Assembly (NCBI GenBank): GCA_947625045.1
Contig: CANQMW010000015.1
Coordinates: 1,429-65,428 of the forward strand
Direction of reading: 5' to 3'
Source: an uncultured Oscillospiraceae bacterium
GTDB taxonomy: Bacteria > Bacillota > Clostridia > Oscillospirales > Oscillospiraceae
Length of the DNA stretch: 64,000 nucleotides
Numbering within the stretch: position 1 is the first letter of the stretch; each line of letters begins with the position of its first letter. Under the pieces are notes generated by a model. That model saw nothing but the letters and a program-made list of their open reading frames with translations, did no database searches and was not told the DNA's origin. Position numbers and translations under genes: made by a program. Below, piece after piece: positions 33,480 to 52,609 of the stretch.

Positions 33480-34945
33480 AAGGAGTCCGTCCCTCCCGTG
33501 GGAAGGACGCCCGTCATCCGGTCCATTCGCCCGTAGTAGTCCTTCTTCAAAAACGCGATGATCCGCTCGCCGCTCTTCCCGTCATGCTTCATGTGCTCCC
33601 GGACATATTTCACCCGCTCTTCCCGCTTGGGGTCCTGCCCCGCCAGCAGCGACTCCAGCTGCGAGATCAGTCCCTGTTTGTTCCGCACCGGATACATGTG
33701 ACGCGCCCACTGCTTGGCATCGGTATCAAAGTGCCACATGACCCCGCAGAAGATGATCGGCTTACCGGTAATAAATTCCTCGACCAGGAGCGACGTCGTA
33801 TCAGAAATAAAAACATCCGCCTCTTCAAAAGAGGGAAGATAGTCGCTATACTCGTCCAAATGTAAATTGTCCGTCTCTTCAAACAGTTTTTTGAATGCCG
33901 CGACATCATCCTCGGTCATCTCACCGGTCGCTATAAAATTGCCAAACATTTTAGGATGAGGACGGCATATCAGCTTATATTCCGGGTGATGGAGGAAGAA
34001 ATCGATCAAGGTATCCTTATACTTGAAAAAAGTACTTGCCTCCAGCCTTCCCTCCGTCAGCCACCGGGGAAGCCAAAGGACTGTCGGCTTTTCTTTGTTT
34101 ACTGCTTTCGTCTCTGTCTCATACAGATCAAACCGCGGATATCCGACGAACTCGATCTTTTTCCATTTTGCGCCGTACAGATCATGGTAGATCTTTTTGA
34201 GCATGTTTTGATACATCTCATTCTCAGTAAAAACAGCATAGGTATAGTCGGTCAGATTTTCCCTGTACACGGCCCGGCTGTCCCAATTCATTTTGCAATA
34301 CGCGTAAGGGATATGGACGACTTTCGTATAGGTAGAGAGCACTTCAGAACGGTACTGCGGCGGAAGATAGTTTTGATTCGACCTGGAGATCACAACATAG
34401 TCTGGATGCAATGCCCGCAGATCAAACCACGTATCCGTTTCGGCGTCATATCCGTTGATCGTCTCAGGATAAAAGCTCTTGCAGTACTCGTACGCGACAT
34501 TTTCTTCGCCATATATATTTGCTGTTATATCCGAAACATGTTTACTTTTACCCGTCTGCATCACCTTCTCCGGCAGCGCCAACAGGGTAACGTCAAAATC
34601 AGCATCCTTTACAGCCGCACGGAAGGCTGACATGCAGGCATTCCATGCCGCATGAAACTGGCAGATGAATACAATAGATACTTTTTTATCCCTATCTTTC
34701 TCCTTGTCGATCTTATCAACATACCAAAACATGCGGTTGCTTACTGCCGTGCGCATTCTCCTGTACGCAGGACGACGCCTGCACTTGAGTTCTTTCTCGT
34801 ATGCAAGCGTGGTAAATCTGCGGAAATAATGATTATTGATAAATGCGCTGACCTTTGCTCTTAGCCTTTTGATAGGTTTCCTTATAAACTTGTCAAAACA
34901 CCGTTTCAACGGAAGAACGATATGGTTCTTTATAAGCGCTTTCAA
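33476..34945 (-). CDS. CDP-glycerol/alditol-phosphate glycerophosphotransferase (TagB/TagF/TarL family), paralog 1
   Basis: 489 aa. VLWLPRW, ICRPHP and ISDTSSLLVEF blocks are present. The probable TTG start overlaps the upstream stop (TTGA). Confidence 0.75.
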   Translation of the reverse strand: MKALIKNHIVLPLKRCFDKFIRKPIKRLRAKVSAFINNHYFRRFTTLAYEKELKCRRRPAYRRMRTAVSNRMFWYVDKIDKEKDRDKKVSIVFICQFHAAWNACMSAFRAAVKDADFDVTLLALPEKVMQTGKSKHVSDITANIYGEENVAYEYCKSFYPETINGYDAETDTWFDLRALHPDYVVISRSNQNYLPPQYRSEVLSTYTKVVHIPYAYCKMNWDSRAVYRENLTDYTYAVFTENEMYQNMLKKIYHDLYGAKWKKIEFVGYPRFDLYETETKAVNKEKPTVLWLPRWLTEGRLEASTFFKYKDTLIDFFLHHPEYKLICRPHPKMFGNFIATGEMTEDDVAAFKKLFEETDNLHLDEYSDYLPSFEEADVFISDTTSLLVEEFITGKPIIFCGVMWHFDTDAKQWARHMYPVRNKQGLISQLESLLAGQDPKREERVKYVREHMKHDGKSGERIIAFLKKDYYGRMDRMTGVLPTGGTDSL

Positions 34946-36261
34946 GTGTTGGCCTCCTGTTTACTATTTAAATAATCTTTTTTGATATAATCGATAACCC
35001 TTTTTCCACTCATACCGTCAAAGTTTATCGAAGTATGTATATACGCGCCGCGGGCGGTCTTTTTGGGGTCGTCCCCCTCCAGCAGGCGGCAGAGACAGCT
35101 TTCTGCCTCATCCCAGCTCCCCGCCTGATACATCAGCCGGGCCCATTTCCGGGCCGCCCGGTCAAAATGGGATATCCTCCCGCAGTAAATGACCGGCTTT
35201 CCCGTGACAAAGGCCTCTATCAGCAGAGAGGACGTGTCGGACACGAAGATATCCGCCGCCGCGAACGCCGGCAGATAGTCGCCGGACTCGTCCAGCTCCA
35301 GCCCCGGCGTCTCGGAAAACAGCTTTCTGAACGCGGCCTCGTCCGCCGGGCTCATCTCGCCGGTGGATATGAAATTCTGGAACATCAGCGGGTGCGGCCG
35401 GCATATGAGCCGCGTCCCGGGATGGCCCCGGACGAACCGGACCAGCGCGTCCCTGTACCGGAAAAACGTGGACGGCTCCAGCAGGTCCCTGGTCGTCCAC
35501 CGGGGCAGCCACAGGATGGTCTTCTGCCCCGTATCCGGCGCCTTTTCCAGACCCTGGCACAGGTCCAGCCGCGGGTATCCCACGCATTGCACCTGCTTCC
35601 AGCCAGCTTTGAACATGCCCCGGAATATCCGTTCCACCATGGCCCGGTACGTCTCGTTTTCCGTGAACACGGCGTAGACGCTGTCCATGAAGTCGCAGCC
35701 GTACACCATCCTGCTGTCCCAGTTCATCTTGCAGTAGGAATAGGGGACATAGCATATCTTCGCGTAGGACGCGATGACCGCGCTGGCATAGCCCGGCTGC
35801 ACCTCTTTGTCATAGGGCCGGGACAGCACCACATAGTCCGGCGCCAGGCTCTCCAGGTCGAACCAGCGCCCCGACGACTCGTCATAGGCGTTGATCGTAT
35901 CCGGGTAAAACGCCCGGCAGAACTCATAGGCCAGGTTCTCCCCGAAGCCCTCCGCGGCCATGCCGTCCTTCGTCACCGCGCCGGCCGGGAGCGCCAGGAG
36001 GTATACCTCCAGCGCCGGGTCCTTCACCGCCGCCTCGAATACCGGCCTGCTGGCATTCCAATAGGCCGGAGAATAGCAGAAGAACGCCACCCGTATCCTC
36101 CGGCCGTCCCGGGGCCGCTGTTCGAGCCGGGCGACATGTTGGGCGGTCTGTGCCGCCCGGGCGATGTGCCGCCTCTTAAACCCCGGCTGCAGCATGCACC
36201 GCAGGCGTATCTCCCCGTCGTAGGGCACGAGCCGCCAGAAGATCCCCTTCAGTCTCTCCAT
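34942..36261 (-). CDS. TagB/TagF/TarL-family polyol-phosphate transferase, paralog 2
   Basis: 439 aa, colinear with paralog 1 (ILWLPRW, ICRPHP, VSDTSSLLIEAF). Confidence 0.75.
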   Translation of the reverse strand: MERLKGIFWRLVPYDGEIRLRCMLQPGFKRRHIARAAQTAQHVARLEQRPRDGRRIRVAFFCYSPAYWNASRPVFEAAVKDPALEVYLLALPAGAVTKDGMAAEGFGENLAYEFCRAFYPDTINAYDESSGRWFDLESLAPDYVVLSRPYDKEVQPGYASAVIASYAKICYVPYSYCKMNWDSRMVYGCDFMDSVYAVFTENETYRAMVERIFRGMFKAGWKQVQCVGYPRLDLCQGLEKAPDTGQKTILWLPRWTTRDLLEPSTFFRYRDALVRFVRGHPGTRLICRPHPLMFQNFISTGEMSPADEAAFRKLFSETPGLELDESGDYLPAFAAADIFVSDTSSLLIEAFVTGKPVIYCGRISHFDRAARKWARLMYQAGSWDEAESCLCRLLEGDDPKKTARGAYIHTSINFDGMSGKRVIDYIKKDYLNSKQEANT

Positions 36262-40802: not shown

Positions 40803-41144
40803 GTGGAAAAGACCAATCACCTGTCAGATAATCTGAGGGCCTATCAATACACCCAGGGCAAGTCCCTGGCAGAGCTTTCTCTGGAATTCGGCATTGCCAG
40901 ATCCACCATCCAGTCGGTCATGGCAGATGGAAATACCACTCTCGATACCCTGATCCGTATAGCATGCGCCATGCACTGCTCGCTGGATGAATTGGTCTTT
41001 GGCGGCCGGCCTGCCAAACAGATGGACGGCATCCATTCCTTCATGGGCCGGTTGGAGTGGTTCGCCGGTCTCCCGGCTGAAAAGCAGGAAAAGTTCGTGT
41101 TCCATCTGCTGGAAATGCTCAAGCTGCTGGAACATGATGAATGA
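40803..41144 (+). CDS. XRE-family helix-turn-helix transcriptional regulator
   Basis: GTG start, with GGGGGAGGA upstream. QGKSLAELSLEFGIARSTIQSVMADGNTTLDTLIRIACAM is an HTH_3 pattern. The gene is divergent from the recombinase. Confidence 0.75.
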   Translation: MEKTNHLSDNLRAYQYTQGKSLAELSLEFGIARSTIQSVMADGNTTLDTLIRIACAMHCSLDELVFGGRPAKQMDGIHSFMGRLEWFAGLPAEKQEKFVFHLLEMLKLLEHDE

Positions 41145-41496
41145 CGTATCCATCCCGGTGGAAGATATCGTTCAGATATATGATCTGTTGTACCGCCTTG
41201 GCATCACCGCCAGCCATACCGGTTTCTTCCATACCGTTTATGCCGTTTACCTCGCCGCAAAGCAGCCTGACCGTTTGCTGCTGGCCGCAAAGTGGCTCTA
41301 TCCTGAAGTGGCCCGGCACTACGGCATCACCTGTTACTGCGCGGTGCGCAGTATCTACATTGCCTCCAGGACCGCCTGGCTTACGAACCGGGACCTTCTG
41401 GAGGAGCTGGCTGCGCGCCCATTGCCTCACAGGCCGGCCGCCGCGGAGTTTCTCGCCATTCTGGCCTCCTATTTCAACTGCCGCTTCGCCGCATAG
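41134..41496 (+). CDS. Spo0A C-terminal (DNA-binding) domain-like protein without receiver domain
   Basis: Start MMNDV overlaps the XRE gene's 3' end. LGITASHTGFFHTVYAVYL...AKWLYPEVARHYGIT...AVRSIYIASRTAW parallels the Spo0A_C helix pattern (GY.YL..AI ... LYP.VA..Y.TT...VERAIRHAI). Confidence 0.6.
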   Translation: MMNDVSIPVEDIVQIYDLLYRLGITASHTGFFHTVYAVYLAAKQPDRLLLAAKWLYPEVARHYGITCYCAVRSIYIASRTAWLTNRDLLEELAARPLPHRPAAAEFLAILASYFNCRFAA

Positions 41497-41534
41497 AGGC
41501 TGTACTCCCCAGCCTCAGCTCTGCTGCGCCTTTC

Positions 41535-41613
41535 CCGCGCCGACAAAAATTGGTTTTTATAATCGGATGAAAAATGCAGAACATATAGCCGACAAGCAAA
41601 CAGGGCGGCATTG
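41535..41613 (+). repeat. Copy B of the 79-nt dispersed direct repeat (partner at 19163..19241)
   Basis: See copy A. Located between the Spo0A_C-like and SASP-like genes. Confidence 0.8.
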
Positions 41614-41687
41614 CGAAATGGCCGCGAGACCGTTTTGGACAGCCGATCCTCTGCCTGTCAATGCAGCGGAAAGGAGTAGAAACGAAA

Positions 41688-41948
41688 ATGGCTAAGAATT
41701 CCAATCAGCTTGTGAACCCCAATGCCCGTGACGCGATGGACCGCTTTAAGATGGAAGCCGCCACCGAGGTGGGCGTCAACCTGAAGCAGGGCTACAACGG
41801 CGACCTGACCAGCAAGCAGGCCGGTTCCGTCGGCGGCCAGATGGTCAAAAAGATGTGTCCCGTACGAACTGTGAAATTTAGGAGGAACGACAGAAATGCG
41901 ATGGGGCATGAAGTGGAGATAAAGTACATAACAGGGATCACGATTTAG
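41688..41948 (+). CDS. Alpha/beta-type small acid-soluble spore protein (SASP)-like protein with a non-canonical C-terminus
   Basis: RBS AAAGGAG. NPNARDAMDRFKMEAATEVGVNL...TSKQAGSVGGQMVKKM matches both SASP signature blocks. After MVKKM the sequence (CPVRTVKFRRNDRN...) no longer resembles SASPs. Confidence 0.6.
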   Translation: MAKNSNQLVNPNARDAMDRFKMEAATEVGVNLKQGYNGDLTSKQAGSVGGQMVKKMCPVRTVKFRRNDRNAMGHEVEIKYITGITI

Positions 41949-41960
41949 GAGGGCTTTGAG

Positions 41961-42206
41961 ATGCGAAAACTGGTCAAGTGTGCGTTCAATATGGACACTG
42001 CCTGCGTGGAACTGCGCTTCTCTGATGGCAGCCGGATCGACATCGACACCGTTGGCGTGGAGAACGAGATTGCCGACAATCTGTATCAGCGCAGCGATCT
42101 GGACTGGCTGATCGATAACAAGCCGCTGGAATACGCCAGGCTCGTCCTTGGAGGCAAGTTGGAGGGATATGTACAAGGGACAGCGGAACATAGGTTGGAA
42201 GATTGA
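41961..42206 (+). CDS. Small conserved hypothetical protein, MGE-associated type
   Basis: 81 aa, RBS TAGGAGGG. From memory MRKLVKCAFNMDTACVELRFSDGS...NLYQRSDLDWLI resembles a small family common on clostridial elements. This is unverified. Confidence 0.5.
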   Translation: MRKLVKCAFNMDTACVELRFSDGSRIDIDTVGVENEIADNLYQRSDLDWLIDNKPLEYARLVLGGKLEGYVQGTAEHRLED

Positions 42207-42222
42207 GCAACGCAAAGAACAC

Positions 42223-42252
42223 GCCCTGCCAGTTGAGCTTGATTGGCAGGGC
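42223..42252. terminator. Hairpin between convergent genes; marks the left edge of the AT-richer cassette
   Basis: GCCCTGCCA-12 nt-TGGCAGGGC, followed by ATTGTTTC. Confidence 0.5.
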
Positions 42253-42273
42253 ATTGTTTCATACTCTTCTTAT

Positions 42274-43239
42274 TCACTCAGTCCGTTCCGAATTTTGAAC
42301 GATTTGCTTTTTCATTTCGTCAACATCCGCCTCTGTCAAACTTGCGCGATAGTCAATGTGCTTTGGATTGATTTGCTCCGATAAATCATTTACATTGCAA
42401 CAATCATAGACCACATTTTGTACTCTAATTATTCTTTCTGGCTTTTTTTGCAGTTCTAAATCGTCCTGAGAAAAAATAACGAAGTTCATCCCCACATGAC
42501 TTTGGAAGCTCGGATACGATATCCCCTGAACTGAAGCATCTTTATCCCTAAGAGCATTAACCAAATATTGTGTTGGTAGATACTCCAAATCTGCGTCTCC
42601 TCTACGAATGGGACGCGAGAACTGGAATGACAACTCTCTTGCGGTTGCATTTAAGTAAATGTTTATATCCTCGTCATCTATGAGCATCGCCTTTAAGTCT
42701 TGCCCGGTGCGTGGTAACTTAATTATCTTAATTGGCGACGGGTTTACATACTCTACTACATTCACAAGCTCTAAGATTGACGGACGAACCTCCGAGACTG
42801 CTGTGTATATGTTATCTGTTACATATAAGTCGGGAATTCCCTTTGGACTGGCTCGGTTTGGACCGGCCTTCTCTACGGGTGGCACGCCAACATCAGAAGG
42901 ATCAGAATACCCTCTGATTAGGCTCTTTCTAGGTATCCAAACCGGCATTTTCTCATTATCATGTCCCAAATAATCTATGTGCTTTTGAACTGTTAATTTC
43001 CACCCTGGGATAATCCTTGCTCTATAGAATACCGATCCCACAGGAACTTCAACTGTGAAGTACTTTGCTAGCAAGTCCGTAACTTCATCAATGAACTCTC
43101 TGTCTTCCTTTCGGGGAATAAAACGTGCATTGTGAATCAGGTTATAACAAAACATGTTCCATCGATGATGGAAATATGTACTTTTTGCCGCAAATTCAAA
43201 GTTCTTCATTCTCTTTTTTAGTTCTTGCTCTTCCTTCAT
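42274..43239 (-). CDS. RES domain protein with helical N-terminal extension; no adjacent Xre/DUF2384-type antitoxin
   Basis: The R-E-S triad is in context: SVFYRARI, NRASPKGIPDLYVTDNIYTAVSEV and QGISYPS. The start is either ATG 43239 (RBS AGAGGAAG) or GTG 43266, which overlaps the hsdR stop (GTGA). Confidence 0.7.
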   Translation of the reverse strand: MKEEQELKKRMKNFEFAAKSTYFHHRWNMFCYNLIHNARFIPRKEDREFIDEVTDLLAKYFTVEVPVGSVFYRARIIPGWKLTVQKHIDYLGHDNEKMPVWIPRKSLIRGYSDPSDVGVPPVEKAGPNRASPKGIPDLYVTDNIYTAVSEVRPSILELVNVVEYVNPSPIKIIKLPRTGQDLKAMLIDDEDINIYLNATARELSFQFSRPIRRGDADLEYLPTQYLVNALRDKDASVQGISYPSFQSHVGMNFVIFSQDDLELQKKPERIIRVQNVVYDCCNVNDLSEQINPKHIDYRASLTEADVDEMKKQIVQNSERTE

Positions 43240-43262
43240 TTCATCTTCCTCTAAAGCAAAAA

Positions 43263-46232
43263 TCACTGCGCTTCTCTCAAGCTTTTATAAATCTCTTCCG
43301 TAAATATTCCCAGCACCTGGCGTTTGAGTTCCTCGTCACTCAGGAGCAGCGAGAAGAAATCCTGGTTTTGTGAGAGACCCTCAATCAGCGCGTCATCGAT
43401 GTCATCGAAATAGGAAAACTCAAAATCCTTAACGGTATTGCTCTTGGCGCTGGCCCGCAGTTTTTCCGACTTCAAGAGAATATCCCGTATCTGGAGCATC
43501 GCCTTGACCGCCACATCCGTGTCATAGGCCCTGCCGGTGCGGCTGTTTATCTCAGCAATAATTTCGGACAGGCGCTCTTCCTTTGCTTCTGTGAGGCCGA
43601 ATGTCTCCGCCGTCGGGAGTTTCACCACCGGCTGTGCGACGAGCTTCGGCTCGACGTGTTCCGCTTCTTTCTTCTGCACAAAGTTGGTTGCCCTGATTTT
43701 ACCGTCCAGATCATAGCCGCCGCCCGGATGCTTGATATTGATATACGCCAGCAGATATGTAATGAAATTGTACTTTTTATGCAGGTCAGTGTCTTCAAAA
43801 CAGGATACCTGCAGCAAAAACTCATAGAACCGAACAAAGTGCCGCAGCTGGGCAACGATCTCCTGCTGGGTAAGCGGCTCATATTGCTCGATCATGTTCT
43901 TTGCCCGTTTGAAATAGAACGTGAGTTTCTGCTTGTCCCTGGGCGTTATATTCGCCTTATAGAGCAGTCCGTTTGCCCTATCAATATCATCGGGATCGAG
44001 TACGGCATAGGCGTCGATCCTAGCTTCCAGATCATAGATCGCTGTCGGCGTTACGGAATTGGACAGCAACGTGGTCGTATAATACGGCGCAAAGGCAGTC
44101 TTGATTTCCTCATAGCTGTTCACAAAATCCAGCACAAAAGTCTTTTTCTCAAAGGGCGGACAGATACGGTTCAGCCTGGAGAGTGTCTGTACCGCCGACA
44201 CTCCTTTGAGTTTTTTCAGCACATACATCGCGCAGAGTTTCGGCTGGTCGAACCCGGTCTGATACTTGTTCGCTACCAGCAGAACCTGATACTCATTCTC
44301 GTCAAACTCTCTCGGAAGCCGATTCTCCGGGAACCCGTTCATGGACGCCTCGGTGTACTCCGTCTCGTCGTCCGGCAGGGTCACCTTGCCAGAGAATGCC
44401 ACCAGTGCCTTAATATCGGTATAACCCTTCTTCTTGGTGTAATCCTCAAAAGCCTGCCGGTACTTCACTGCTCCCTGCCGGGAGGCAGTTATCACCATGG
44501 CCTTTGCCATGCCGCCAAGTTCCGGCATTACCGTGGTACGGAAATGCTCAACTATGACTTCCACTCGCTGGGCGATATTTGTCTCATGCAGTTCTACGAA
44601 ACGTGCAATCTGCCGCTTGGCGTCCGATGTTTTGCAGCGAGGGTCCTCCTCGATCTCCTTGTTGATTTGATAAAAAGTCTTATACGTCGTGTAATTCTGG
44701 AGCACATCAAGTATAAAACCTTCCTCAATAGCCTGCTTCATAGAATAGATGTGGAAAGCCTCCCGCTGCCCCTTTTTGTTCAACCGACCGAAAAGCTGGA
44801 TAGTCGTAGGCTTAGGCGTGGCCGTGAAAGCGAACATGGACACGTTCGCCTGTTTGCCATTCCTGCGAATCTCATCGGTAATCATGTCCTCGACATCGCC
44901 GTAATCCGGTTCGCCAGCACCAAGAGACTTGGTTACGGCGGCCATATCCTTGCCAGCCGTGGAGGAGTGCGCCTCGTCAATGATCACAGCAAACCGTTTT
45001 TCTTTCAGCCCCTTTACGCTGTCCACAATATAGGGGAATTTCTGAATGGTGGTAGCGATGATCTTCGTGTTGCCATTGAGTGCATTCGCCAGATCGTTGG
45101 AATTACACTTGTCATCCATCACTCGAATCAGGCCAGCCTTGTGTTCCATGCCCATGATCGCCTTTTGCAGCTGCCGATCCACTACTACCCGGTCAGTGAC
45201 TATGATAATATTATCAAATATAATATGGTTGTTCGCGTCATGCAACGATGTCAATCGGTGCGCCAGCCAGGCGATGGAGTTGGTCTTGCCGGAACCGGCG
45301 CTGTGCTGGATCAGGTAATTCTGTGTGGTGCCGTTCGTGCGCACATCCGCCAGAAGCTGGCGGATAACGTCAAGCTGGTGGTAACGGGGGAATATGATGT
45401 TCTCCGACTTCTTCGTCTTGCCAGTCAGTTCGTCGCGGCTCTCGTTCGCGTCAATGAAGATGAACTTGCTGACAAGGTCGAGAATCGTATCCTTTTTCAG
45501 GATGTCCTCCCACATATAAGAGACGCTGTACTTATCCTCAAAAACAGGGTTGCCCGCACCGGCATTCACGCCCTCGTCGCGGCCCATGTTGAACGGCAGA
45601 AAGAATGTGGCATTTCCGGCCAGTTTGGTGGTCATATAGACCTGCTCAAGGTCCAGAGCGAAGCAGACAAGGCACCCAGCTTTAAAGCGGAACAAGCGGG
45701 TCCCAGGATCACGATCCGTGCGGAACTGATAAATCGCGTCCTGATAAGATTGCCCGGCGAGGTTGCATTTCAGTTCAAAGGACATAATGGCAAGGCCGTT
45801 GAGGAAGATTACAAGGTCGATGCGTTCCTCATCGCTTGCCCATACTTCCTCCATTACAGAGAATATATTCTTTTCGTACTTAGCCAACAGTTCCTTGTTG
45901 AAAGTGGTCGCCGGTTTTGTGTACATTAGTTCCAACTGCATATTGGAGATCTCGACGCCATGCTTCAATATATCCAGCAGACTGCCGTGCGCCTTCGTCG
46001 CCTCAGCATTGATGAAGCTGACGATTGTTTCCTCCAAATCGGCCTTGTATATCTTCCGCAGGGCGTCCATCGTCTCTGCCTGGGTATCCCATAGGAACCG
46101 AAACAGCATCTCCCGGTCCATGGCGAAGCGATGGTCATAGTCCGTTTGGCTGCGGATGATATATCCATTATCCTGGGAGAGGCGCTCCATTATGTAGTGC
46201 TGATATTCTTTTTCGGATAGGATGTAATTCAT
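43263..46232 (-). CDS. hsdR: Type I restriction enzyme R subunit
   Basis: 989 aa. N-terminal PD-(D/E)xK (IDLVIFLNGLAIMSFELK), SF2 helicase motifs (QHSAGSGKT, VIIDEAHSS) and a C-terminal helical domain are present. Confidence 0.9.
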   Translation of the reverse strand: MNYILSEKEYQHYIMERLSQDNGYIIRSQTDYDHRFAMDREMLFRFLWDTQAETMDALRKIYKADLEETIVSFINAEATKAHGSLLDILKHGVEISNMQLELMYTKPATTFNKELLAKYEKNIFSVMEEVWASDEERIDLVIFLNGLAIMSFELKCNLAGQSYQDAIYQFRTDRDPGTRLFRFKAGCLVCFALDLEQVYMTTKLAGNATFFLPFNMGRDEGVNAGAGNPVFEDKYSVSYMWEDILKKDTILDLVSKFIFIDANESRDELTGKTKKSENIIFPRYHQLDVIRQLLADVRTNGTTQNYLIQHSAGSGKTNSIAWLAHRLTSLHDANNHIIFDNIIIVTDRVVVDRQLQKAIMGMEHKAGLIRVMDDKCNSNDLANALNGNTKIIATTIQKFPYIVDSVKGLKEKRFAVIIDEAHSSTAGKDMAAVTKSLGAGEPDYGDVEDMITDEIRRNGKQANVSMFAFTATPKPTTIQLFGRLNKKGQREAFHIYSMKQAIEEGFILDVLQNYTTYKTFYQINKEIEEDPRCKTSDAKRQIARFVELHETNIAQRVEVIVEHFRTTVMPELGGMAKAMVITASRQGAVKYRQAFEDYTKKKGYTDIKALVAFSGKVTLPDDETEYTEASMNGFPENRLPREFDENEYQVLLVANKYQTGFDQPKLCAMYVLKKLKGVSAVQTLSRLNRICPPFEKKTFVLDFVNSYEEIKTAFAPYYTTTLLSNSVTPTAIYDLEARIDAYAVLDPDDIDRANGLLYKANITPRDKQKLTFYFKRAKNMIEQYEPLTQQEIVAQLRHFVRFYEFLLQVSCFEDTDLHKKYNFITYLLAYINIKHPGGGYDLDGKIRATNFVQKKEAEHVEPKLVAQPVVKLPTAETFGLTEAKEERLSEIIAEINSRTGRAYDTDVAVKAMLQIRDILLKSEKLRASAKSNTVKDFEFSYFDDIDDALIEGLSQNQDFFSLLLSDEELKRQVLGIFTEEIYKSLREAQ

Positions 46233-46275
46233 AATCCGTACCCCTTCTCATATGTTACGCTATGTTCAAAATAAA

Positions 46276-47316
46276 TTATTGATCTCTAAGCCTCTTAATT
46301 AGTTGCCTTGCAAAGAGAATTGCGATTTGGTCACAGGTATAATCGTTGGATTTTATGCCTTGGATATCCACTATGGATGGATAGTGGTTCTGTAAGTCTG
46401 TTCTTGTAATGTTATGCAGTATTGGCAATATCACCTTTTGCCCATTCTTGTTCTGTCTTCCAAGAAACTCTGTCAGTTCGCGCTCAGTCCATTCCCTTCC
46501 GAAGAAGTTTTCAGATATTACGATAATAGCAAACTCGGACTTCTCTGTCCCCTCAAGTATGCGCTCCTTCCAGTTATCTCCCCATTCGAGCGATTCTTTG
46601 TCATAAAAAATCTTAATGTCAAGCATATTCAAAGATTGATACAGTTTATCAACTAGTTCAACCTTATCTTTACTAGCATGAGAAATGAAAACGTCATATT
46701 TACTCAACTGCATTCCTATATTATCAGATGCAAGGTTTTCTTGATTAATATGTTTACGTTTTCTATATTCTGTGTCACCACATATACTCTCCAAGACAGA
46801 GACCAAATCATTATAAGTACTCAATTTACGATGAAACAAAATGGATTCAATTCGTTTTGCAAGAGGATGATCCGTCAAATACCTATGGTAGAATATTTCA
46901 AAATCATTGATCCAAATATTACTTGGACGGTTGTATTCGTTCATATCAGTGCCAATCGGAGCAGCATTAATCGGAGAATTAATCATCTTGGTTCTGTGAA
47001 GAAGTTCAAACAGTTCCCTCTCAAAAGGGGAAAAATGAGCTTCCGTTTTCAATTTATCTAATTCAGCCCTGTAAATGCGTTCTTCATATGTATAACCATC
47101 TTTCAGGACTTGAATGTGATATGGAATATCATCGGCCCAAAGCACGGAAATTAGGTTATTATTCTTTAGTTCTCCAAAACAGCCACGTACAATTATTTCT
47201 TCCTTATATTGCATTTTTTCAAATCGTTTCCGCCAATAGTCCGGCTCCGTCTCATGCTCTATTATTTCTGCAAGAAGTTTTCTTGCCTCGTCTGAGATAT
47301 ACGTAGCCTCTTTCAT
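46276..47316 (-). CDS. TIR-domain protein with an unassigned ~200-aa N-terminal domain
   Basis: The C-terminal region is YDVFISHASKDKVELVDKLYQSLNMLDIKIFYDKESLEWGDNW...FAIIVISENFFGREWTERELTEF, matching the TIR beta-A/BB-loop/alpha-C pattern. The ATG overlaps the hsdS stop (ATGA). Confidence 0.75.
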   Translation of the reverse strand: MKEATYISDEARKLLAEIIEHETEPDYWRKRFEKMQYKEEIIVRGCFGELKNNNLISVLWADDIPYHIQVLKDGYTYEERIYRAELDKLKTEAHFSPFERELFELLHRTKMINSPINAAPIGTDMNEYNRPSNIWINDFEIFYHRYLTDHPLAKRIESILFHRKLSTYNDLVSVLESICGDTEYRKRKHINQENLASDNIGMQLSKYDVFISHASKDKVELVDKLYQSLNMLDIKIFYDKESLEWGDNWKERILEGTEKSEFAIIVISENFFGREWTERELTEFLGRQNKNGQKVILPILHNITRTDLQNHYPSIVDIQGIKSNDYTCDQIAILFARQLIKRLRDQ

Positions 47317-47969
47317 TGCTCAATTCCCTTCTTCCCTGTGACACATTCAAAAACAATAGACTGTCTATATTTCTCAAGAGCATCAAGTTGTCTCTGCAAA
47401 CTAGATGATAATTCCGCAATCTTACTACAACGACTATCTAAAAAGTCAGCTATTGATTCTTGCTCGTCTAAGGGGGGATAAGGAATGTATGTATTTCCAA
47501 AATCTTCAAAAGCAATGTTTTTCCCATCACGTAAACTCATAGTATGAGAATTCATTTCACTAATAAAACACTTGTCCTTAAACAGGTACTTGTAGAATCG
47601 ATCACAGATCTGTCGAACCGGATAAAACACCTGATAAGCAGGTGAAACTACACCTTCATATTTTGAGTACTCAAAGCCACCTTGAAAACTTCTAAGGCTA
47701 ATACAAAAATCGCCTTTATGAATTGTTTTGAAGGCCGAGAGGTCTGTGTCATCTTTCACTTTAACGACATTAGCACTTGTCAGTTCTTCAAGTAATGCCT
47801 GCGGAATAACGCCAAAATGTTGTGTTGGCGAAAGAAGCTGCAATTCAATATTATTTCCCTTTTCATTTCGCTGAGTAAATATGTACTTTCCTTTGTAGAA
47901 TTCCCAATAGTCAGGGACTTCACCAAGCCACTCAGCAAGAGGATTAACTGTCAGTGCCATAATCATCAC
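47313..47969 (-). CDS. hsdS: Type I R-M specificity subunit, half-size (single target-recognition domain)
   Basis: About 215 aa with one TRD plus a conserved helix (PPLDEQESIADFLDSRCSKIAEL...IVFECVTGKKGI). The best-spaced start is ATG 47960, 8 nt after AAGGAG. Confidence 0.8.
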   Translation of the reverse strand: MMIMALTVNPLAEWLGEVPDYWEFYKGKYIFTQRNEKGNNIELQLLSPTQHFGVIPQALLEELTSANVVKVKDDTDLSAFKTIHKGDFCISLRSFQGGFEYSKYEGVVSPAYQVFYPVRQICDRFYKYLFKDKCFISEMNSHTMSLRDGKNIAFEDFGNTYIPYPPLDEQESIADFLDSRCSKIAELSSSLQRQLDALEKYRQSIVFECVTGKKGIEQ

Positions 47970-47981
47970 TCCTTATACGCC

Positions 47982-50084
47982 TTATACGAACAAATCCCTT
48001 GTCTGCATTATTATATCTTGTGCTAAACTCTCAAGTTCATTTTTTAAGAGATCACTGTTCTCTGGGAATTTAGGTTTATAAAATTTCCGGGTAAAAATAA
48101 TTTCGGCTCCCGTTTTAATAATTTGATTCTTTGCCGTTAAGTTTTCCTCAAAGAAAGCTGCTGCATCAGGGATATATGGAAGTACTTCCCGACGCATATA
48201 GGTCTCTATATCGATCTTTACTGGAACTTTCTCCGTATCTTTCGATTCTTTGTCATATAATGTATATCCTTTTCGATCACGCTGTATCTCAGCCCGCTTG
48301 TCCATCGCGGAAAGCCCATCCGCAATTTTTTCAAGCAGCTTCTTATCGCTTGTTACCTGTGTAAGGGCAGCCGTCAGCACCGGCATAAAGGCAGCCGGAG
48401 AATAGTAGATGCTCTCGGAAACTGCATCCTGCAACGCGGCAAGGATAGCATCATAAACCGATTTGTTGTCTTGGTACTTCTCCAGTTTTCTCTGATTCTT
48501 TCCGGACAGTTCCTCGACGTTTTCCAATTCACTGACCTTCGCTTCGTCATAAAGCGAAGACAGTGACCCTTTTGAGAGCATGGAAGCAATGCGCCCTTCT
48601 GTGATAGCATAGCTACGCTGGAGAGGCTGCATCACCGTGTACTCTCGATAGATGAACTCCTCATTGTCATAGATTTTACAGTATTCATTCTCTACAAAAT
48701 TAGCATATAGTTTAGTAATGACAGAACGATCCATAGGGGTAATTTCATTTTTCTTGTCGCCAAGTCCACGTCTCAACTTGTGAAAACAGGACGACGCATC
48801 AATCAATTGTATCTTTCCTTTGCGTTCCTTTCGCTTGTTTTTTGAAAGAACCCAAATATATGTTGCTATTCCCGTATTGTAGAACAAATCACTTGGTAGC
48901 TGTATTATTGATTCAATAAAATCGTTTTCCAAAAACCATTTTCTTATCTGGCTCTCACCAGAAGACGCTCCACCGGTAAACAGCGGGCTACTGTTCTCTA
49001 TTATGGCGGCGCGGCCAAATTCATCGTCCATTTTGTCGATAGCGGATTGCAGAAACAGCATCTGCATATCGCCCGCACTGGGCAACCCTGCGCCCCAACG
49101 ACCAGAAAAACCCTTCTGATGCTCAGCCCTAACCGCTTCCTCTACGCCGTCGGCAGCATCGCTGCCGCCCCACGCCTGTCCAAACGGCGGGTTCTCCAGA
49201 ACAAAGCGCATTTTGGTGTCTTTGAATCGGTCTGCAACCATAGTGTCCTGATAACAAATTCTATCTGCACTCTGCCCCTTAATGAGCATCTCCGCCAAAC
49301 ACATAGCATAAGATTCAGGATTGTTTTCCTGCCCAAATAGGCGCACGTCGGCGGTCGGATTATATCGCTTTATAAAGTTATATCCTGTGGACAGCATGCC
49401 GCCCGTGCCGCAAGCCTGATCCAAGATGGTAATGACCTTACCATCGTCAAAAATGTCGTCACAGCCCTCGGCCAGCAGGATGTTGACCATCAGTTTGATG
49501 ATGTCGCGGCCGGTGTAGTGGTCGCCAGCTTCGGCGTTTTCAGAGAACTTCCGGATCAGTTCCTCAAAGATATACCCCATCTTTACGTTGTCGATGGTGC
49601 GCGGATCTAAATCCAATTCAGAGAATGCTTTCACGACAGATAGCAGACGGTTGTTCTTGTCCATCTTGTCGATCTCTTCACCAAAGTTCAGTCCTCGCTC
49701 CTTAGACAACAATATTTCCAGCACATTGGCAGAGAACCCTTCCAGGTAGCTTTTGAAGTTAGCGGCAATATGATCCGCATCGTTCACAAGCTCGGCAAGG
49801 TCATACTCGCTGGTATTGTAGAACGGGAAGCCGGAAACACGGTACATTGCCTTTGCCGGGTAATTTGGATTGGCCTTATACTGAGCCACGACAGCCTGCT
49901 TTGTCGGCGCAAGGGCACACTCGAACCGTCGAATGATCGTCATAGGGATGATGACGTCCTTATACTTGTCGCTCCGGTACGGCCCGCGCAGTTTGTTGGC
50001 GATGGACCAGATGAAGTTTACCTCGGTAGAGACATCTATGGGAGAATCATCCCACATCGCGTCAATGATTTTTCTGTCAGCCAT
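47982..50084 (-). CDS. hsdM: Type I R-M DNA methyltransferase subunit (N6-adenine), long form
   Basis: 700 aa. LDQACGTGGML (motif I) and VLENPPFGQAWGG (motif IV, NPPF) are present. The HsdM N-domain includes IWSIANKLRG. A ~200-aa C-terminal extension follows. Confidence 0.9.
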   Translation of the reverse strand: MADRKIIDAMWDDSPIDVSTEVNFIWSIANKLRGPYRSDKYKDVIIPMTIIRRFECALAPTKQAVVAQYKANPNYPAKAMYRVSGFPFYNTSEYDLAELVNDADHIAANFKSYLEGFSANVLEILLSKERGLNFGEEIDKMDKNNRLLSVVKAFSELDLDPRTIDNVKMGYIFEELIRKFSENAEAGDHYTGRDIIKLMVNILLAEGCDDIFDDGKVITILDQACGTGGMLSTGYNFIKRYNPTADVRLFGQENNPESYAMCLAEMLIKGQSADRICYQDTMVADRFKDTKMRFVLENPPFGQAWGGSDAADGVEEAVRAEHQKGFSGRWGAGLPSAGDMQMLFLQSAIDKMDDEFGRAAIIENSSPLFTGGASSGESQIRKWFLENDFIESIIQLPSDLFYNTGIATYIWVLSKNKRKERKGKIQLIDASSCFHKLRRGLGDKKNEITPMDRSVITKLYANFVENEYCKIYDNEEFIYREYTVMQPLQRSYAITEGRIASMLSKGSLSSLYDEAKVSELENVEELSGKNQRKLEKYQDNKSVYDAILAALQDAVSESIYYSPAAFMPVLTAALTQVTSDKKLLEKIADGLSAMDKRAEIQRDRKGYTLYDKESKDTEKVPVKIDIETYMRREVLPYIPDAAAFFEENLTAKNQIIKTGAEIIFTRKFYKPKFPENSDLLKNELESLAQDIIMQTRDLFV

Positions 50085-50193
50085 TACTTTGTCCTCTTTT
50101 TATTCTTACAGTATCAAGATTAATCATTGCAACCCCAATCAGCCTGTCCACCTGCTTACCATGACCATGTGGGTGTTCAAAACAAAGAATCAG

Positions 50194-51204
50194 TCAAAAG
50201 GGGAGAGCTTCCTCCTCGTCTGGTTCGTCATCTCCTTCGAGGCCAAGCAACTGTCTTGCGCGAAGAAGGAGTTGATCATAAGTCATAATATGAAGCTGGT
50301 GATATGAGGCATTAAGTATTCTCAACGCTTTTGATTTGTCCTCTCCCCAGTCGTTTGATCGTCCATACACAAGTAAGCATTGCGGTTTAACCGTCTTTGT
50401 GCCTCCAACGCGCTCTAAGAACTCGACTGAATTCGACTGAAGTTCAATCTTATATAAATAGTTTAGACACTGCATTATTGCACCTGAGAGTGTTGCCGAT
50501 GGACAATAGTTACCGTGTGAATCGGGACCAACCCAGAAAGGAATCGTTGGTTTTTTTATCTCTACAACATCCAAAAAACCGTCGAGTGAACGCATAAGAT
50601 AGTCCGCAATATCATCAACATCAATATCTCTTTCCGGAAGTATATTTAGGAACTCAGATCCCAGAATCCATTTATTATGCTCAAACCATTCCTGCCAATA
50701 TGATTCAGGGTAGTTTTGCTCAATGGCATTCCTGAACTCTTGTATGGCATAGTTTCTTCTTGCAGCCGTAATTGCAACACTCAGGTTTTCGGTAAGTACG
50801 CCCGATTCCAACAGCTTGTCCACTACTTCGTCATCTGAAATCCCAAGTTCGCGTACTTTGGAGAATAACTTTGCTGCATCCTCATCAGCTGCAATGAATT
50901 CGGTCATTCCCACATTCAACGGCACATAATAATCCTGAATATAGTCAATCAAATTATCTAGCTCAGGTGTTGTAAGTGTAATCGATTTATCAACTTTCTC
51001 TTTGAATCCTTCAGCGATTTTACTCATTCTTGCAATTTTCAGAGATACGATTTTCTCCCCTGTTGAGTTGTGCGTATTTCTAAAAAACACAGCCCGGCAA
51101 GAACTTCTCACTCCGGAACTCAATTCTTTTGCTTCAACATATTCTTGCCCACTCCTAGATGTTTTAACTATTTTCCACTCCTGCATAACAACTCTCTCTT
51201 TCAA
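50194..51204 (-). CDS. Shedu-like DUF4263 (PD-(D/E)xK nuclease) defence protein
   Basis: The C-terminal half is WQEWFEHNKWILGSEF...DGFLDVVEIKKP...QCLNYLY...PQCLLVYGRS...IMTYDQLL, which follows the SduA/DUF4263 layout. The start is either TTG 51204 or ATG 51186. Confidence 0.65.
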   Translation of the reverse strand: MKERVVMQEWKIVKTSRSGQEYVEAKELSSGVRSSCRAVFFRNTHNSTGEKIVSLKIARMSKIAEGFKEKVDKSITLTTPELDNLIDYIQDYYVPLNVGMTEFIAADEDAAKLFSKVRELGISDDEVVDKLLESGVLTENLSVAITAARRNYAIQEFRNAIEQNYPESYWQEWFEHNKWILGSEFLNILPERDIDVDDIADYLMRSLDGFLDVVEIKKPTIPFWVGPDSHGNYCPSATLSGAIMQCLNYLYKIELQSNSVEFLERVGGTKTVKPQCLLVYGRSNDWGEDKSKALRILNASYHQLHIMTYDQLLLRARQLLGLEGDDEPDEEEALPF

Positions 51205-51259
51205 AGATTAGGTTCATGTCGATACAATATGATTGACCAACCCCAAGCTTAGACTATAT

Positions 51260-52609
51260 CTATAACCTTTGTTTCTTCAACCCCACCCCGATCAATCTGT
51301 CCGCCTGATCCGCCATAAACAACGGGATATTCAGCACGTCATCGTCCAGCTTCAGGTTGTCCAGAGAAAACCGAATACGGAGCTTAACTTCCTCCGGGAA
51401 CAGTTCCTTGAACTTCCGCAGGCTTCGGCTGGCGGTATTGGCCTCGGACTTGACCTCCACCGGGAAAATGTCGTTCTCCCGTTGGATCAGGAAATCCACC
51501 TCATATGGCGGGTTGGTCTGGCTCCAATAGCGGGGCATGACCTCGAACTGGGTGATGAGCGTTTGCAGCACATAGTTTTCCGTCAGCGCGCCTTTAAACT
51601 CCGTGAACAAGCGGTTCCCCTCGCCAAAGGCGGTCGGCGCCAGCTGTGCCAGCCGCCGCAAGACGCCCACATCCGCCAGGTAGATCTTGAACGCGGACAA
51701 ATCATCATAGGCCGACACGGGCAGCCGTGGCGCGGAACTGCGGTAGACCTTATGCACCAAGCGGGCGTCCACCAGCCATTGCAGGGCGTCTTCGTACTCC
51801 CTGGCCCGGGCCCCCTCCTTCACGACCTTGTAGATGAACTTTTTATTCTCGCGCGCAAGCTGCGAGGGAATGGACTTCCATACCATGGATATTTTCGGGA
51901 ATTCTTTCACGTCCGGGTGCTTGCCGAAATCCCGCTCATAGGCCCCGATGATGTTGGACAGCGCCTCCTGCATGGCCTCCACGTCCCGCTCCTGGGTCCA
52001 CATAGCCACCGGCTCCGGCATGCCGCCCGTGACGTAATACATCTTCAACCGCTCATAAAGCGGGTTGAAAAAGGCGTCCGGTATCGGCTCAATGGCATCC
52101 ACGCGGTCCATATACTCCACAAGATTCCCGTCCCCGTTGGCCAGCAGAAATTCTGTGAACGTCATGGGGTCGATCTGCATGAAGTTGACCTTGCCCACCG
52201 GGAAGGAGGCCGGCTTCGCCAGCGCGATGCCCAGCAGGGACCCGGCGCAGGCGACGTGATACTGCGGCGCGTTCTCACAAAAATACTTCATGGAATTGAT
52301 GACCTTCGGGCAGTCCTGCACCTCGTCGAAGATGATCAGGGTCTTCTCCGGGACGATTTTCTGCCCGCTGGCCAGCATCAAATTTTGCAGGATGCGCTCC
52401 ACGTCCTTGGTGGTCTCGAAAAACTGCTTATATTCCTCGTTCTCGTCAAAGTTGAAGTAGGCAGTGTTGTCATAGTACCGCCGCCCGAACTCTTTGAGCA
52501 CCCAGGTCTTGCCCACTTGCCGTACGCCTTTCAGGATCAGCGGCTTGCGGTGCTTGGAATTTTTCCACTTCAACAGGTCATTTAAGATCGATCGCTCCAC
52601 AAAAGACAC
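51260..52609 (-). CDS. AAA-type ATPase with DUF4143-like C-terminal domain
   Basis: GTG start. ILKGVRQVGKTW (Walker A) and LIIFDEVQ (Walker B) are present. The architecture is typical of the AAA_14/DUF4143 ATP-binding proteins. Confidence 0.7.
   Translation of the reverse strand: MSFVERSILNDLLKWKNSKHRKPLILKGVRQVGKTWVLKEFGRRYYDNTAYFNFDENEEYKQFFETTKDVERILQNLMLASGQKIVPEKTLIIFDEVQDCPKVINSMKYFCENAPQYHVACAGSLLGIALAKPASFPVGKVNFMQIDPMTFTEFLLANGDGNLVEYMDRVDAIEPIPDAFFNPLYERLKMYYVTGGMPEPVAMWTQERDVEAMQEALSNIIGAYERDFGKHPDVKEFPKISMVWKSIPSQLARENKKFIYKVVKEGARAREYEDALQWLVDARLVHKVYRSSAPRLPVSAYDDLSAFKIYLADVGVLRRLAQLAPTAFGEGNRLFTEFKGALTENYVLQTLITQFEVMPRYWSQTNPPYEVDFLIQRENDIFPVEVKSEANTASRSLRKFKELFPEEVKLRIRFSLDNLKLDDDVLNIPLFMADQADRLIGVGLKKQRL

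Follow-up and report, generated by a model that had tools for sequence, protein, structure and literature searches.

What is a gene for a RES-domain protein doing at the end of a restriction-modification (R-M) operon when no antitoxin gene stands next to it? This question is raised by a 64,000-nucleotide stretch of DNA from an uncultured Oscillospiraceae bacterium (contig CANQMW010000015.1; the whole stretch is hereafter called the window), in which an open reading frame (ORF) at 42274-43266 lies on the reverse strand directly behind hsdR. A preliminary description of this DNA had supposed that a free-standing RES toxin requires a neutralising partner, and had nominated the R-M complex, or the TIR protein encoded in the same operon, for that role. 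Our analysis leads elsewhere: the gene is probably an autonomous, single-protein abortive-infection effector of the kind known as aRES, in a shortened form, which ends the restriction operon as an independent module.

Read at its longest, the gene (42274..43266, reverse strand) encodes 330 amino acids (aa) from a GTG codon that shares 4 nt with the hsdR stop, while an internal ATG at 43239 gives a protein of 321 aa (42274..43239, reverse strand, with its stop codon at 42274-42276). Both the GTGA overlap with hsdR and the later start behind its own ribosome-binding site (RBS), which had been offered as alternatives, are present. We prefer the ATG because the N-termini of homologues coincide with it, and because at the homologous locus L019 the GTG has changed to GTA, yet the RBS and the ATG are retained, so that the longest RES ORF there is one of 321 aa. 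The RBS, a Shine-Dalgarno-like AGAGGAAG read from the sequence (43245..43252, reverse strand) and kept in L019, lies 5 nt before the ATG. We take ATG 43239 as the probable true start, and residue numbers refer to the 321-aa version unless the longer ORF is named.

The assignment of the ORF beside hsdR to the RES family was borne out by profile search. Pfam RES (PF08808) matched with 41.7-41.8 bits, above its gathering score of 23.2 (E 1.4e-10 to 1.5e-10), the match covering residues 132-271 of the 330-aa ORF and model positions 20-143 of 157, and a precomputed PF08808 match is present in all 16 of 16 close homologues. Taking Pfam, hhalign, BLASTP and a joint alignment together, the catalytic domain, a member of the ADP-ribosyltransferase (ART) superfamily, occupies 42370..43059 on the reverse strand (residues ~61-290). 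Its R/E/S triad had been read as FYRAR, AVSEV and ISYPS. The Glu and the Ser of this reading stand, AVSEV supplying the RES Glu and YPS the RES Ser, but its Arg has to be moved: in the alignment, the counterpart of ParT's GGRWN Arg is the Arg of NRASPKG (R129), which we take to be the triad Arg, and FYRAR is a second invariant Arg motif located at the start of the RES domain (Pfam model positions ~2-6). Within the clade formed by the protein and its close relatives, R129 (NRASPKG), E150 (SEVRP), S244 (YPS), Y139, N252 and R73/R75 are invariant. In a joint alignment of this clade with NTD1-RES relatives (see below) and two validated aRES, invariance extends to W27, R73, R75, P120, R129, Y139, E150, R152, Y220, Q224, G239, S244 and N252. 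Tyr and Asn are known to occupy ART positions in RES domains (PMC9503650).

In the AlphaFold2 (AF2) model of the protein (pLDDT 79, pTM 0.78), a mixed beta core is preceded by two N-terminal helices and followed by a C-terminal helix at residues 303-320. When this model was compared with the PDB in Foldseek, the top matches were the catalytic domain of diphtheria toxin and the RES toxins 9r35, 6gw6 and 8gug; these matches are weak (E 0.009-1.8, TM 0.21-0.24 on the query), and so the fold evidence is consistent with a RES enzyme without being decisive. PADLOC 2.0 and NCBIfam scans of the protein returned no match.

Kinship with stand-alone RES effectors

Farther relatives of the protein, at 27-33% identity, are ~340 aa long and carry an N-terminal CxxC...CxxC zinc ribbon (ZnR) followed by HEPN/RES-NTD1 (PF18870) and the RES domain, a fusion that was described bioinformatically in 2013 by Anantharaman et al. 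(PMC3710099). Aligned by hhalign, the profile of the window clade matched a profile of 24 such ZnR/NTD1-RES proteins with a probability of 100% (E 2e-45, 231 columns), across residues 17-286 of the window protein.

Stand-alone RES proteins with this domain were the subject of a preprint from the Sorek laboratory in January 2026 (Osterman et al., bioRxiv 10.64898/2026.01.28.702374), which defined aRES as RES proteins of 300-600 aa with matches to both RES and PF18870, the latter at an HHsearch probability >80%. According to the same preprint, aRES homologues occur in about 4% of genomes and are frequent in defence islands, without an operonic link to other genes; three aRES, each expressed alone in E. 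coli, gave phage protection with growth arrest; upon infection NAD+ was depleted to nicotinamide and ADP-ribose-1''-phosphate (ADPR-1''-phosphate), the latter accumulating; and active-site mutations led to loss of defence. As aRES works alone in E. coli, a separate neutralising gene is unnecessary for a free-standing RES protein, which removes the premise on which the proposed neutralisation by the R-M complex or the TIR protein had rested.

Homology to aRES was also recovered by direct comparison, using the first ~400 residues of the aRES sequences given in Table S4 of the preprint. BLASTP matched the window protein to the aRES of E. coli UC5 at E 8e-10, with 23% identity over 231 aa, and hhalign matched the clade profile to the same protein with a probability of 95.3% (E 2e-8).

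At its N-terminus the window protein is a stump of these relatives. Residues 1-60 (43060..43239, reverse strand) form a helical hairpin in the AF2 model, with helices at 2-37 and 44-60, which agrees with the ~80-aa helical extension noted in the preliminary description. This extension corresponds to the last segment of HEPN/RES-NTD1: residues ~17-42 are a remnant of the last NTD1 helix, recognisable by its W27..F30..RF motif, and are followed by a linker helix. Alignment of the N-regions alone by hhalign (probability 92%, E 6e-7) matched solely the last third of the N-region of the long relatives. Profile searches had been proposed for both RES and HEPN/RES-NTD domains, and while the former was found as given above, PF18870 had no hmmscan match in the window protein at E<=10. 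The homologue P0009 is the sole clade member with a PF18870 match in hmmscan, a weak one (E 0.17) to model positions 105-130 of 131. A surrogate NTD1-only profile, made from PF18870-positive relatives as a stand-in for the true Pfam model, aligned over 23 columns with a probability of 16.6%.

The clade further has a specific insertion of ~35 aa after FYRARI, parting the first Arg motif from the rest of the RES domain, and a C-terminal tail (42277..42369, reverse strand; residues ~291-321 according to alignments and AF2 secondary structure) with a conserved amphipathic helix at 303-320. This tail is shared within the clade and missing from the ~340-aa NTD1-RES relatives. The idea that it might be a fused, DUF2384-like antitoxin segment was dropped, as it had no Pfam match at E<=10.

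How rare the short form is can be judged from a profile search of 1.84 billion representative proteins, in which 2,546 proteins reached E<=1e-10 and 5,394 reached E<=0.001, with five full-length representatives scoring >260 bits and the next protein scoring 123 bits. Among the more distant matches, too, are short forms of about 230-310 aa whose alignment starts at their N-terminus; P0165, P0221 and P0243 are examples, and these three likewise have a C-terminal helical tail. A scan of viral contigs yielded no relative of the RES protein, a phage collection contained two distant partial matches and no more, and a JGI metagenome scan gave distant relatives only (24-31%). Judged by these comparisons, the protein belongs to a small clade that is part of a looser assemblage of aRES relatives of short form, and the short form is a rare variant of a stand-alone kind that has already been described.

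Two arrangements seen among the longer relatives deserve mention here. At L034 (4192-7020) and L036 (4126-7023), as well as at L037 and L038, three abutting genes encode a P4 cII-like protein (PADLOC 'cll', E 2e-17), a ~310-aa protein without a family and a ZnR/NTD1-RES protein (P0020, P0053). The cassettes adjoin a type ISP R-M system or a Gabija-like pair. Unlike published aRES, the RES genes of these cassettes look operonic, and the cassette is reminiscent of gop-beta-cII-type systems, here with RES as the effector. The second arrangement is found on the E. coli IncK2/Z plasmid NZ_LR890609.1 (L045, 2823-4322), which carries a solitary gene for a 499-aa 'RES family NAD+ phosphorylase', WP_001542563.1. 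This protein is 33% identical to aRES UC5 (E 1e-60) and occurs on ~85 other Escherichia/Shigella plasmids, and aRES-type genes are thus a common cargo of conjugative plasmids.

Contexts of close relatives and rival explanations

A database search recovered 16 close relatives of the protein (41-99% identity, ~320-336 aa), all with intact frames and conservation over their full length, and the genes upstream of them vary from context to context. At 99% identity, the copies of L010-L012 lie behind the same hsdR as in the window, in an operon that lacks the TIR gene and has a full-length HsdS and two unknown genes of 234 and 132 aa; in L010 the HsdS has 424 aa, the 132-aa gene replaces the TIR gene and the 234-aa gene lies between hsdM and hsdS. 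At 98% identity, the copy of L019 lies behind a type III mod/res pair, and a 55-codon remnant of the 3' end of hsdR, in-frame but headless, stands between the type III res and the RES gene (L019 9831-10000). Here, recombination within hsdR swapped the type I for the type III system and left the RES gene intact.

More distant members of the clade extend this variety. Those at 60% identity are placed behind hsdM-hsdS (L005), behind a type II HindVP/Dcm/Vsr set (L044), or divergently from an unrelated RelB/ParE pair, which is a separate module (L043); a copy at 59% follows an Eco57I-like methylase, a SIR2 protein and a 73-aa ORF (L014). Two are found in integrative conjugative elements (ICEs), one adjoining nikA and relaxase genes (L003, 50%) and the other having a giant helicase gene and some small unknown ORFs as neighbours (L009, 42%). 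The copy of L001 (62%) is solitary, placed between a tRNA-Leu gene and an ABC transporter, so that it is preceded by the tRNA gene and not by an ORF. At L005 (6973-10990), the RES homologue comes directly after hsdM-hsdS, and no hsdR was called anywhere in the contig, which is 13 kb long. Upstream there are genes for a large SIR2_2 protein and for a DUF2971 protein, and convergently downstream there is one for an HD-domain protein. A survey of hsdR adjacency among close homologues, as had been suggested, thus gives a divided answer: L010-L012 have the same hsdR, and elsewhere the gene is accompanied by other R-M types, lies in ICEs or stands alone.

An Xre/DUF2384 (helix-turn-helix, HTH) antitoxin neighbour was found neither in the window, as the preliminary description had stated, nor in any of the ten distinct settings surveyed for the clade; in the window, the flanking genes are hsdR and the convergent DUF6061 gene. 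The small ORFs that might hide one, located upstream at L014 (73 aa) and L009 (86 aa) and downstream at L003 (101 aa), are mutually dissimilar and have no HTH/DUF2384 match. Neutralisation by the R-M complex or the TIR protein is not supported by the same survey: the 99%-identical gene does without TIR, the 98%-identical gene has only a dead 55-codon piece of hsdR before it, and relatives at 42-62% identity occur behind type II R-M or hsdM-hsdS genes, beside SIR2, in ICEs or alone.

With a dN/dS of 0.09-0.13, the RES gene is under purifying selection and is not a decaying remnant. The scenario of a degenerating orphan, that is, of a toxin from a RES-Xre pair that has lost its antitoxin, could appeal to the absence of an antitoxin gene, but is barely credible given this dN/dS of about 0.1, the intact and fully conserved frames of all 16 close homologues, not one of which has an Xre/DUF2384 neighbour, and a length of 321 aa with an NTD1 remnant, unlike toxin-antitoxin (TA) toxins of ~150-190 aa. 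When the window (41961-43431) was compared with L010, L018 and L019, the nucleotide identity of the RES gene was 98.2-98.8%, versus 85-94% for the 3' end of hsdR and 81-91% for DUF6061. That the gene is more conserved than either flank is in keeping with a self-contained unit, retained or exchanged independently of them, and the higher identity may reflect a recent exchange of the cassette between related elements, or unusually strong constraint. On the reading that we favour, the gene is inherited and exchanged as its own module irrespective of the R-M type upstream.

If the protein is indeed a shortened aRES, then its chemistry as an NAD+ phosphorylase, its anti-phage role, its self-silencing and its trigger, as we infer them, would combine as follows. 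Its synthesis would accompany or closely follow expression of the restriction operon, and by itself the protein would be catalytically silent, being held off within the molecule by the helical hairpin at its N-terminus, by its C-terminal helix or by both, or else requiring a phage-derived trigger. Phage infection would lead the RES domain to cleave NAD+, most likely by phosphorolysis to nicotinamide and ADPR-1''-phosphate, upon which the infected cell would stop growing and phage replication would be blocked. The gene lies at the edge of the variable defence cargo of the element, which is bordered by tyrosine recombinases, a MobA/MobL relaxase and a serine recombinase.

Several observations weigh against this interpretation. 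Identity to validated aRES is low, at ~19-23%. Missing from the protein are the zinc ribbon and most of NTD1 (its first ~100 aa), the parts by which aRES is operationally defined and presumably regulated, and its regulation may therefore differ from that of aRES. Since most of the aRES-defining domain has been lost, the aRES precedent does not explain how the clade stays off and switches on. The structural matches to RES/ART folds are weak (best E 0.009, TM about 0.24), and PDB sequence searches with either the RES protein or the clade profile returned no RES chain. R-M genes adjoin the RES gene in 5/8 independent contexts. Lastly, RES domains can be protein ADP-ribosyltransferases, as is ParT, and sequence cannot tell the two activities apart.

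This last point raises the possibility that the protein is a ParT-like ADP-ribosyltransferase, or another NAD+-consuming transferase, that modifies a host or phage macromolecule instead of degrading bulk NAD+, in which case it may still be defensive. A profile of the wider family, searched against PDB sequences, matched only the ParT chains 6d0h and 6d0i, very weakly (E about 1), diphtheria toxin catalytic domains are the best Foldseek matches, and the ~35-aa insertion together with the C-terminal tail could form a substrate-binding surface. We nevertheless find a transferase rather unlikely, as these structural and PDB matches are not significant, the closest characterised relatives by sequence are aRES, shown to produce ADPR-1''-phosphate, and most characterised RES toxins (MbcT, NatT and P. 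putida RES) degrade NAD+ (PMC9503650; bioRxiv 10.64898/2026.01.28.702374). The recurrence of restriction genes points to a different rival, a guard comparable to PrrC, in which the RES protein is silenced by contact with, or the activity of, the restriction complex and fires once a phage anti-restriction protein disables that complex, as a second line of defence; this is the most tenable form of the neutralisation idea. The RES gene is directly downstream of R-M genes, on the same strand, in 5/8 independent contexts, namely type I (window/L018, L010-13), type III (L019), hsdM-hsdS (L005), type II HindVP/Dcm/Vsr (L044) and, within two genes, Eco57I-like (L014); its start touches or overlaps the stop codon of hsdR; having lost the N-terminal domain of aRES, the clade would need other control; and there is a precedent in PrrC/EcoprrI, an anticodon nuclease that resides in a type Ic R-M system and is kept silent by it (PMC3710099). 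Yet partners of the unrelated types I, II and III offer no common protein surface to silence the enzyme, making a specific contact implausible, and the 98%-identical protein persists under purifying selection after replacement of hsdR. Other clade members are solitary or lie in ICE transfer regions without an R-M gene nearby, aRES relatives are enriched in defence islands generally, and PrrC, in contrast, is almost confined to type I loci (bioRxiv 10.1101/2024.01.29.577857). A guard of this sort is quite unlikely on balance, and we give little credence to a looser functional coupling of the RES gene to restriction. It is likewise a long shot that short RES forms devoid of the zinc-ribbon/NTD1 sensor make up a distinct NAD+-depleting class that is activated by failure of the upstream restriction system; such a class might respond to some product or state that overwhelmed R-M systems share, or be governed by translational coupling, and its members would then be generic back-ups for types I, II and III instead of autonomous sensors like aRES.

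The gene might instead serve the element that carries it and not the host, by way of addiction or exclusion or as an anti-defence enzyme that travels on ICEs or integrative mobilisable elements and is delivered together with them. Two clade members do lie between nikA-like and relaxase genes, with giant helicase/methylase genes of ICEs next to them; the element of the window copy has a relaxase and recombinases; RES genes for 499-aa relatives are frequent on conjugative IncI/K plasmids; and the RES gene is more conserved than its flanks. Defence genes, however, are routine cargo of such elements, the window copy is inside a block of recognised defence genes, there is no partner gene to make an addiction module, and the validated relatives are host defence proteins, all of which leaves an element-serving function very unlikely.

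A shortened, autonomous aRES-like effector is therefore the explanation we favour. If the short form is active, it would represent a RES NADase that is silenced and triggered without the zinc-ribbon/NTD1 region that defines aRES, it would narrow down the location of the regulatory or sensing determinants, and it would add gut Clostridia, with their mobile elements, to the known range of NAD+ depletion by RES enzymes. Current detection rules for aRES, which combine RES with PF18870, would miss the window clade and other short forms. The recurrent position of the gene behind three R-M types bears on whether NAD+-depleting effectors are layered behind restriction. Apart from the question of its short form, the RES gene is the expected kind of defence-island cargo.

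The surrounding defence cluster and mobile element

The RES gene is the last gene of a defence cluster on an integrative mobilisable element of a Clostridia genome. Its upstream neighbour on the reverse strand, hsdR (43263..46232, 989 aa), was identified by Pfam matches (HSDR_N, SWI2_SNF2, ResIII, T1R_D3-like) and by PADLOC (REase_I), and is the context of the RES gene, not a demonstrated partner. Still on the reverse strand, it is preceded by genes assigned through Pfam and PADLOC scans to the TIR protein (46276-47316), which has a ThsB-like/PDC-S66 C-terminus, a half-size HsdS of 218 aa with one target-recognition domain (47313-47969), and HsdM (47982-50084). The TIR gene thus sits between the half-size HsdS and hsdR, and the N-domain of its product (~200 aa) is of unknown family. 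Directly upstream of hsdM, also on the reverse strand, are Shedu SduA (50194-51204, PADLOC E 3e-121) and a PDC-S01 AAA_14/DUF4143 protein (51260-52609, Pfam and PADLOC). A MobA/MobL relaxase is encoded upstream of PDC-S01 on the strand of the RES gene, with a serine recombinase beyond it.

On the other side, the nearest downstream gene is a convergent DUF6061 gene (41961-42206, forward strand), followed by a convergent gene for an alpha/beta-type SASP (41661-41948, forward strand), both being backbone genes of the mobile element and assigned by Pfam; past this pair, which also borders the RES gene in L010-L012 and L019, are a Spo0A_C-only protein and two tyrosine recombinases. The element backbone at 40987-41948 thus holds sporulation-related genes, for a protein consisting of the Spo0A C-terminal DNA-binding domain only and for the SASP. 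Five defence modules are stacked between the relaxase and the recombinases: type I R-M, TIR, RES, Shedu SduA and PDC-S01.

Between the convergent RES and DUF6061 genes lies a G+C-rich hairpin (42223..42252), detected by a terminator scan and by RNA folding. The scan gives a 13-pair stem, and the fold on the RES strand a G+C-rich 10-pair stem (-29.3 kcal/mol, z = -3.6) followed by a weak U-tract. The hairpin is real, as is the gene's position as the last before it, and is likely a bidirectional terminator serving both genes. An ORF at 41658-42254 on the reverse strand, 20 nt below the RES stop, was dismissed as a gene, having no family match, starting within the terminator stem and running antisense to SASP and DUF6061.

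DNA nearly identical to that of the window (95.9% over 11.7 kb) is present in a metagenome-assembled genome of an uncultured Oscillospiraceae bacterium from rabbit gut. The G+C fraction drops to 0.36-0.47 at 42000-51500, which is the defence cargo, and near 34000-35000, against ~0.6 in the surroundings; the latter stretch falls inside a glycosyl/glycerophosphotransferase cluster. Both stretches of low G+C look like foreign insertions.

Comparison with known systems

With the RES-Xre pairs (MbcT-MbcA, P. putida RES-Xre, NatT-NatR and ParT-ParS) the window protein shares the PF08808 catalytic family and presumably the same NAD+-directed chemistry. It differs from them in that its gene has no Xre/DUF2384 partner and belongs to a defence island on a mobile element rather than to a two-gene module, and in that the protein has 321 aa, compared with toxins of ~150-190 aa, owing to extra N- and C-terminal segments and the internal insertion. 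Its sequence, moreover, has no significant match to any solved RES toxin.

The likeness to PrrC/EcoprrI is one of arrangement, a gene for a suicidal effector within or beside an hsd operon and probably co-transcribed with it. PrrC itself is a HEPN RNase that works with an ABC ATPase, and is embedded almost exclusively in type I loci (bioRxiv 10.1101/2024.01.29.577857), whereas the window clade occurs with types I, II and III, with SIR2, in ICEs or alone; RES is not mentioned in that study of genes embedded in defence systems.

The fusions of ZnR, HEPN/RES-NTD1 and RES are closer, having in common with the window protein the motifs W..F..NRFF, FYRARI, GRANPKG..YLY, EVRP and YLPTQYL, and often R-M or other defence genes as neighbours. 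The window clade retains only the last NTD1 helix of these proteins, and some of the fusions belong to three-gene P4 cII-like cassettes, none of which was seen for the clade.

From aRES, the window protein departs in lacking the zinc ribbon and about 100 aa of HEPN/RES-NTD1, which places it outside the PF18870 part of the aRES definition, and in having the ~35-aa insertion after the first Arg motif and a C-terminal helical tail of its own. It also comes from Oscillospiraceae and not from Enterobacteria. In common with aRES, it is encoded by a single gene without an antitoxin, in a defence island, has the same invariant RES residues, shows homology that begins at the last helix of NTD1 and continues through the RES domain and, at 321 aa (330 from the GTG), falls within the range of 300-600 aa.

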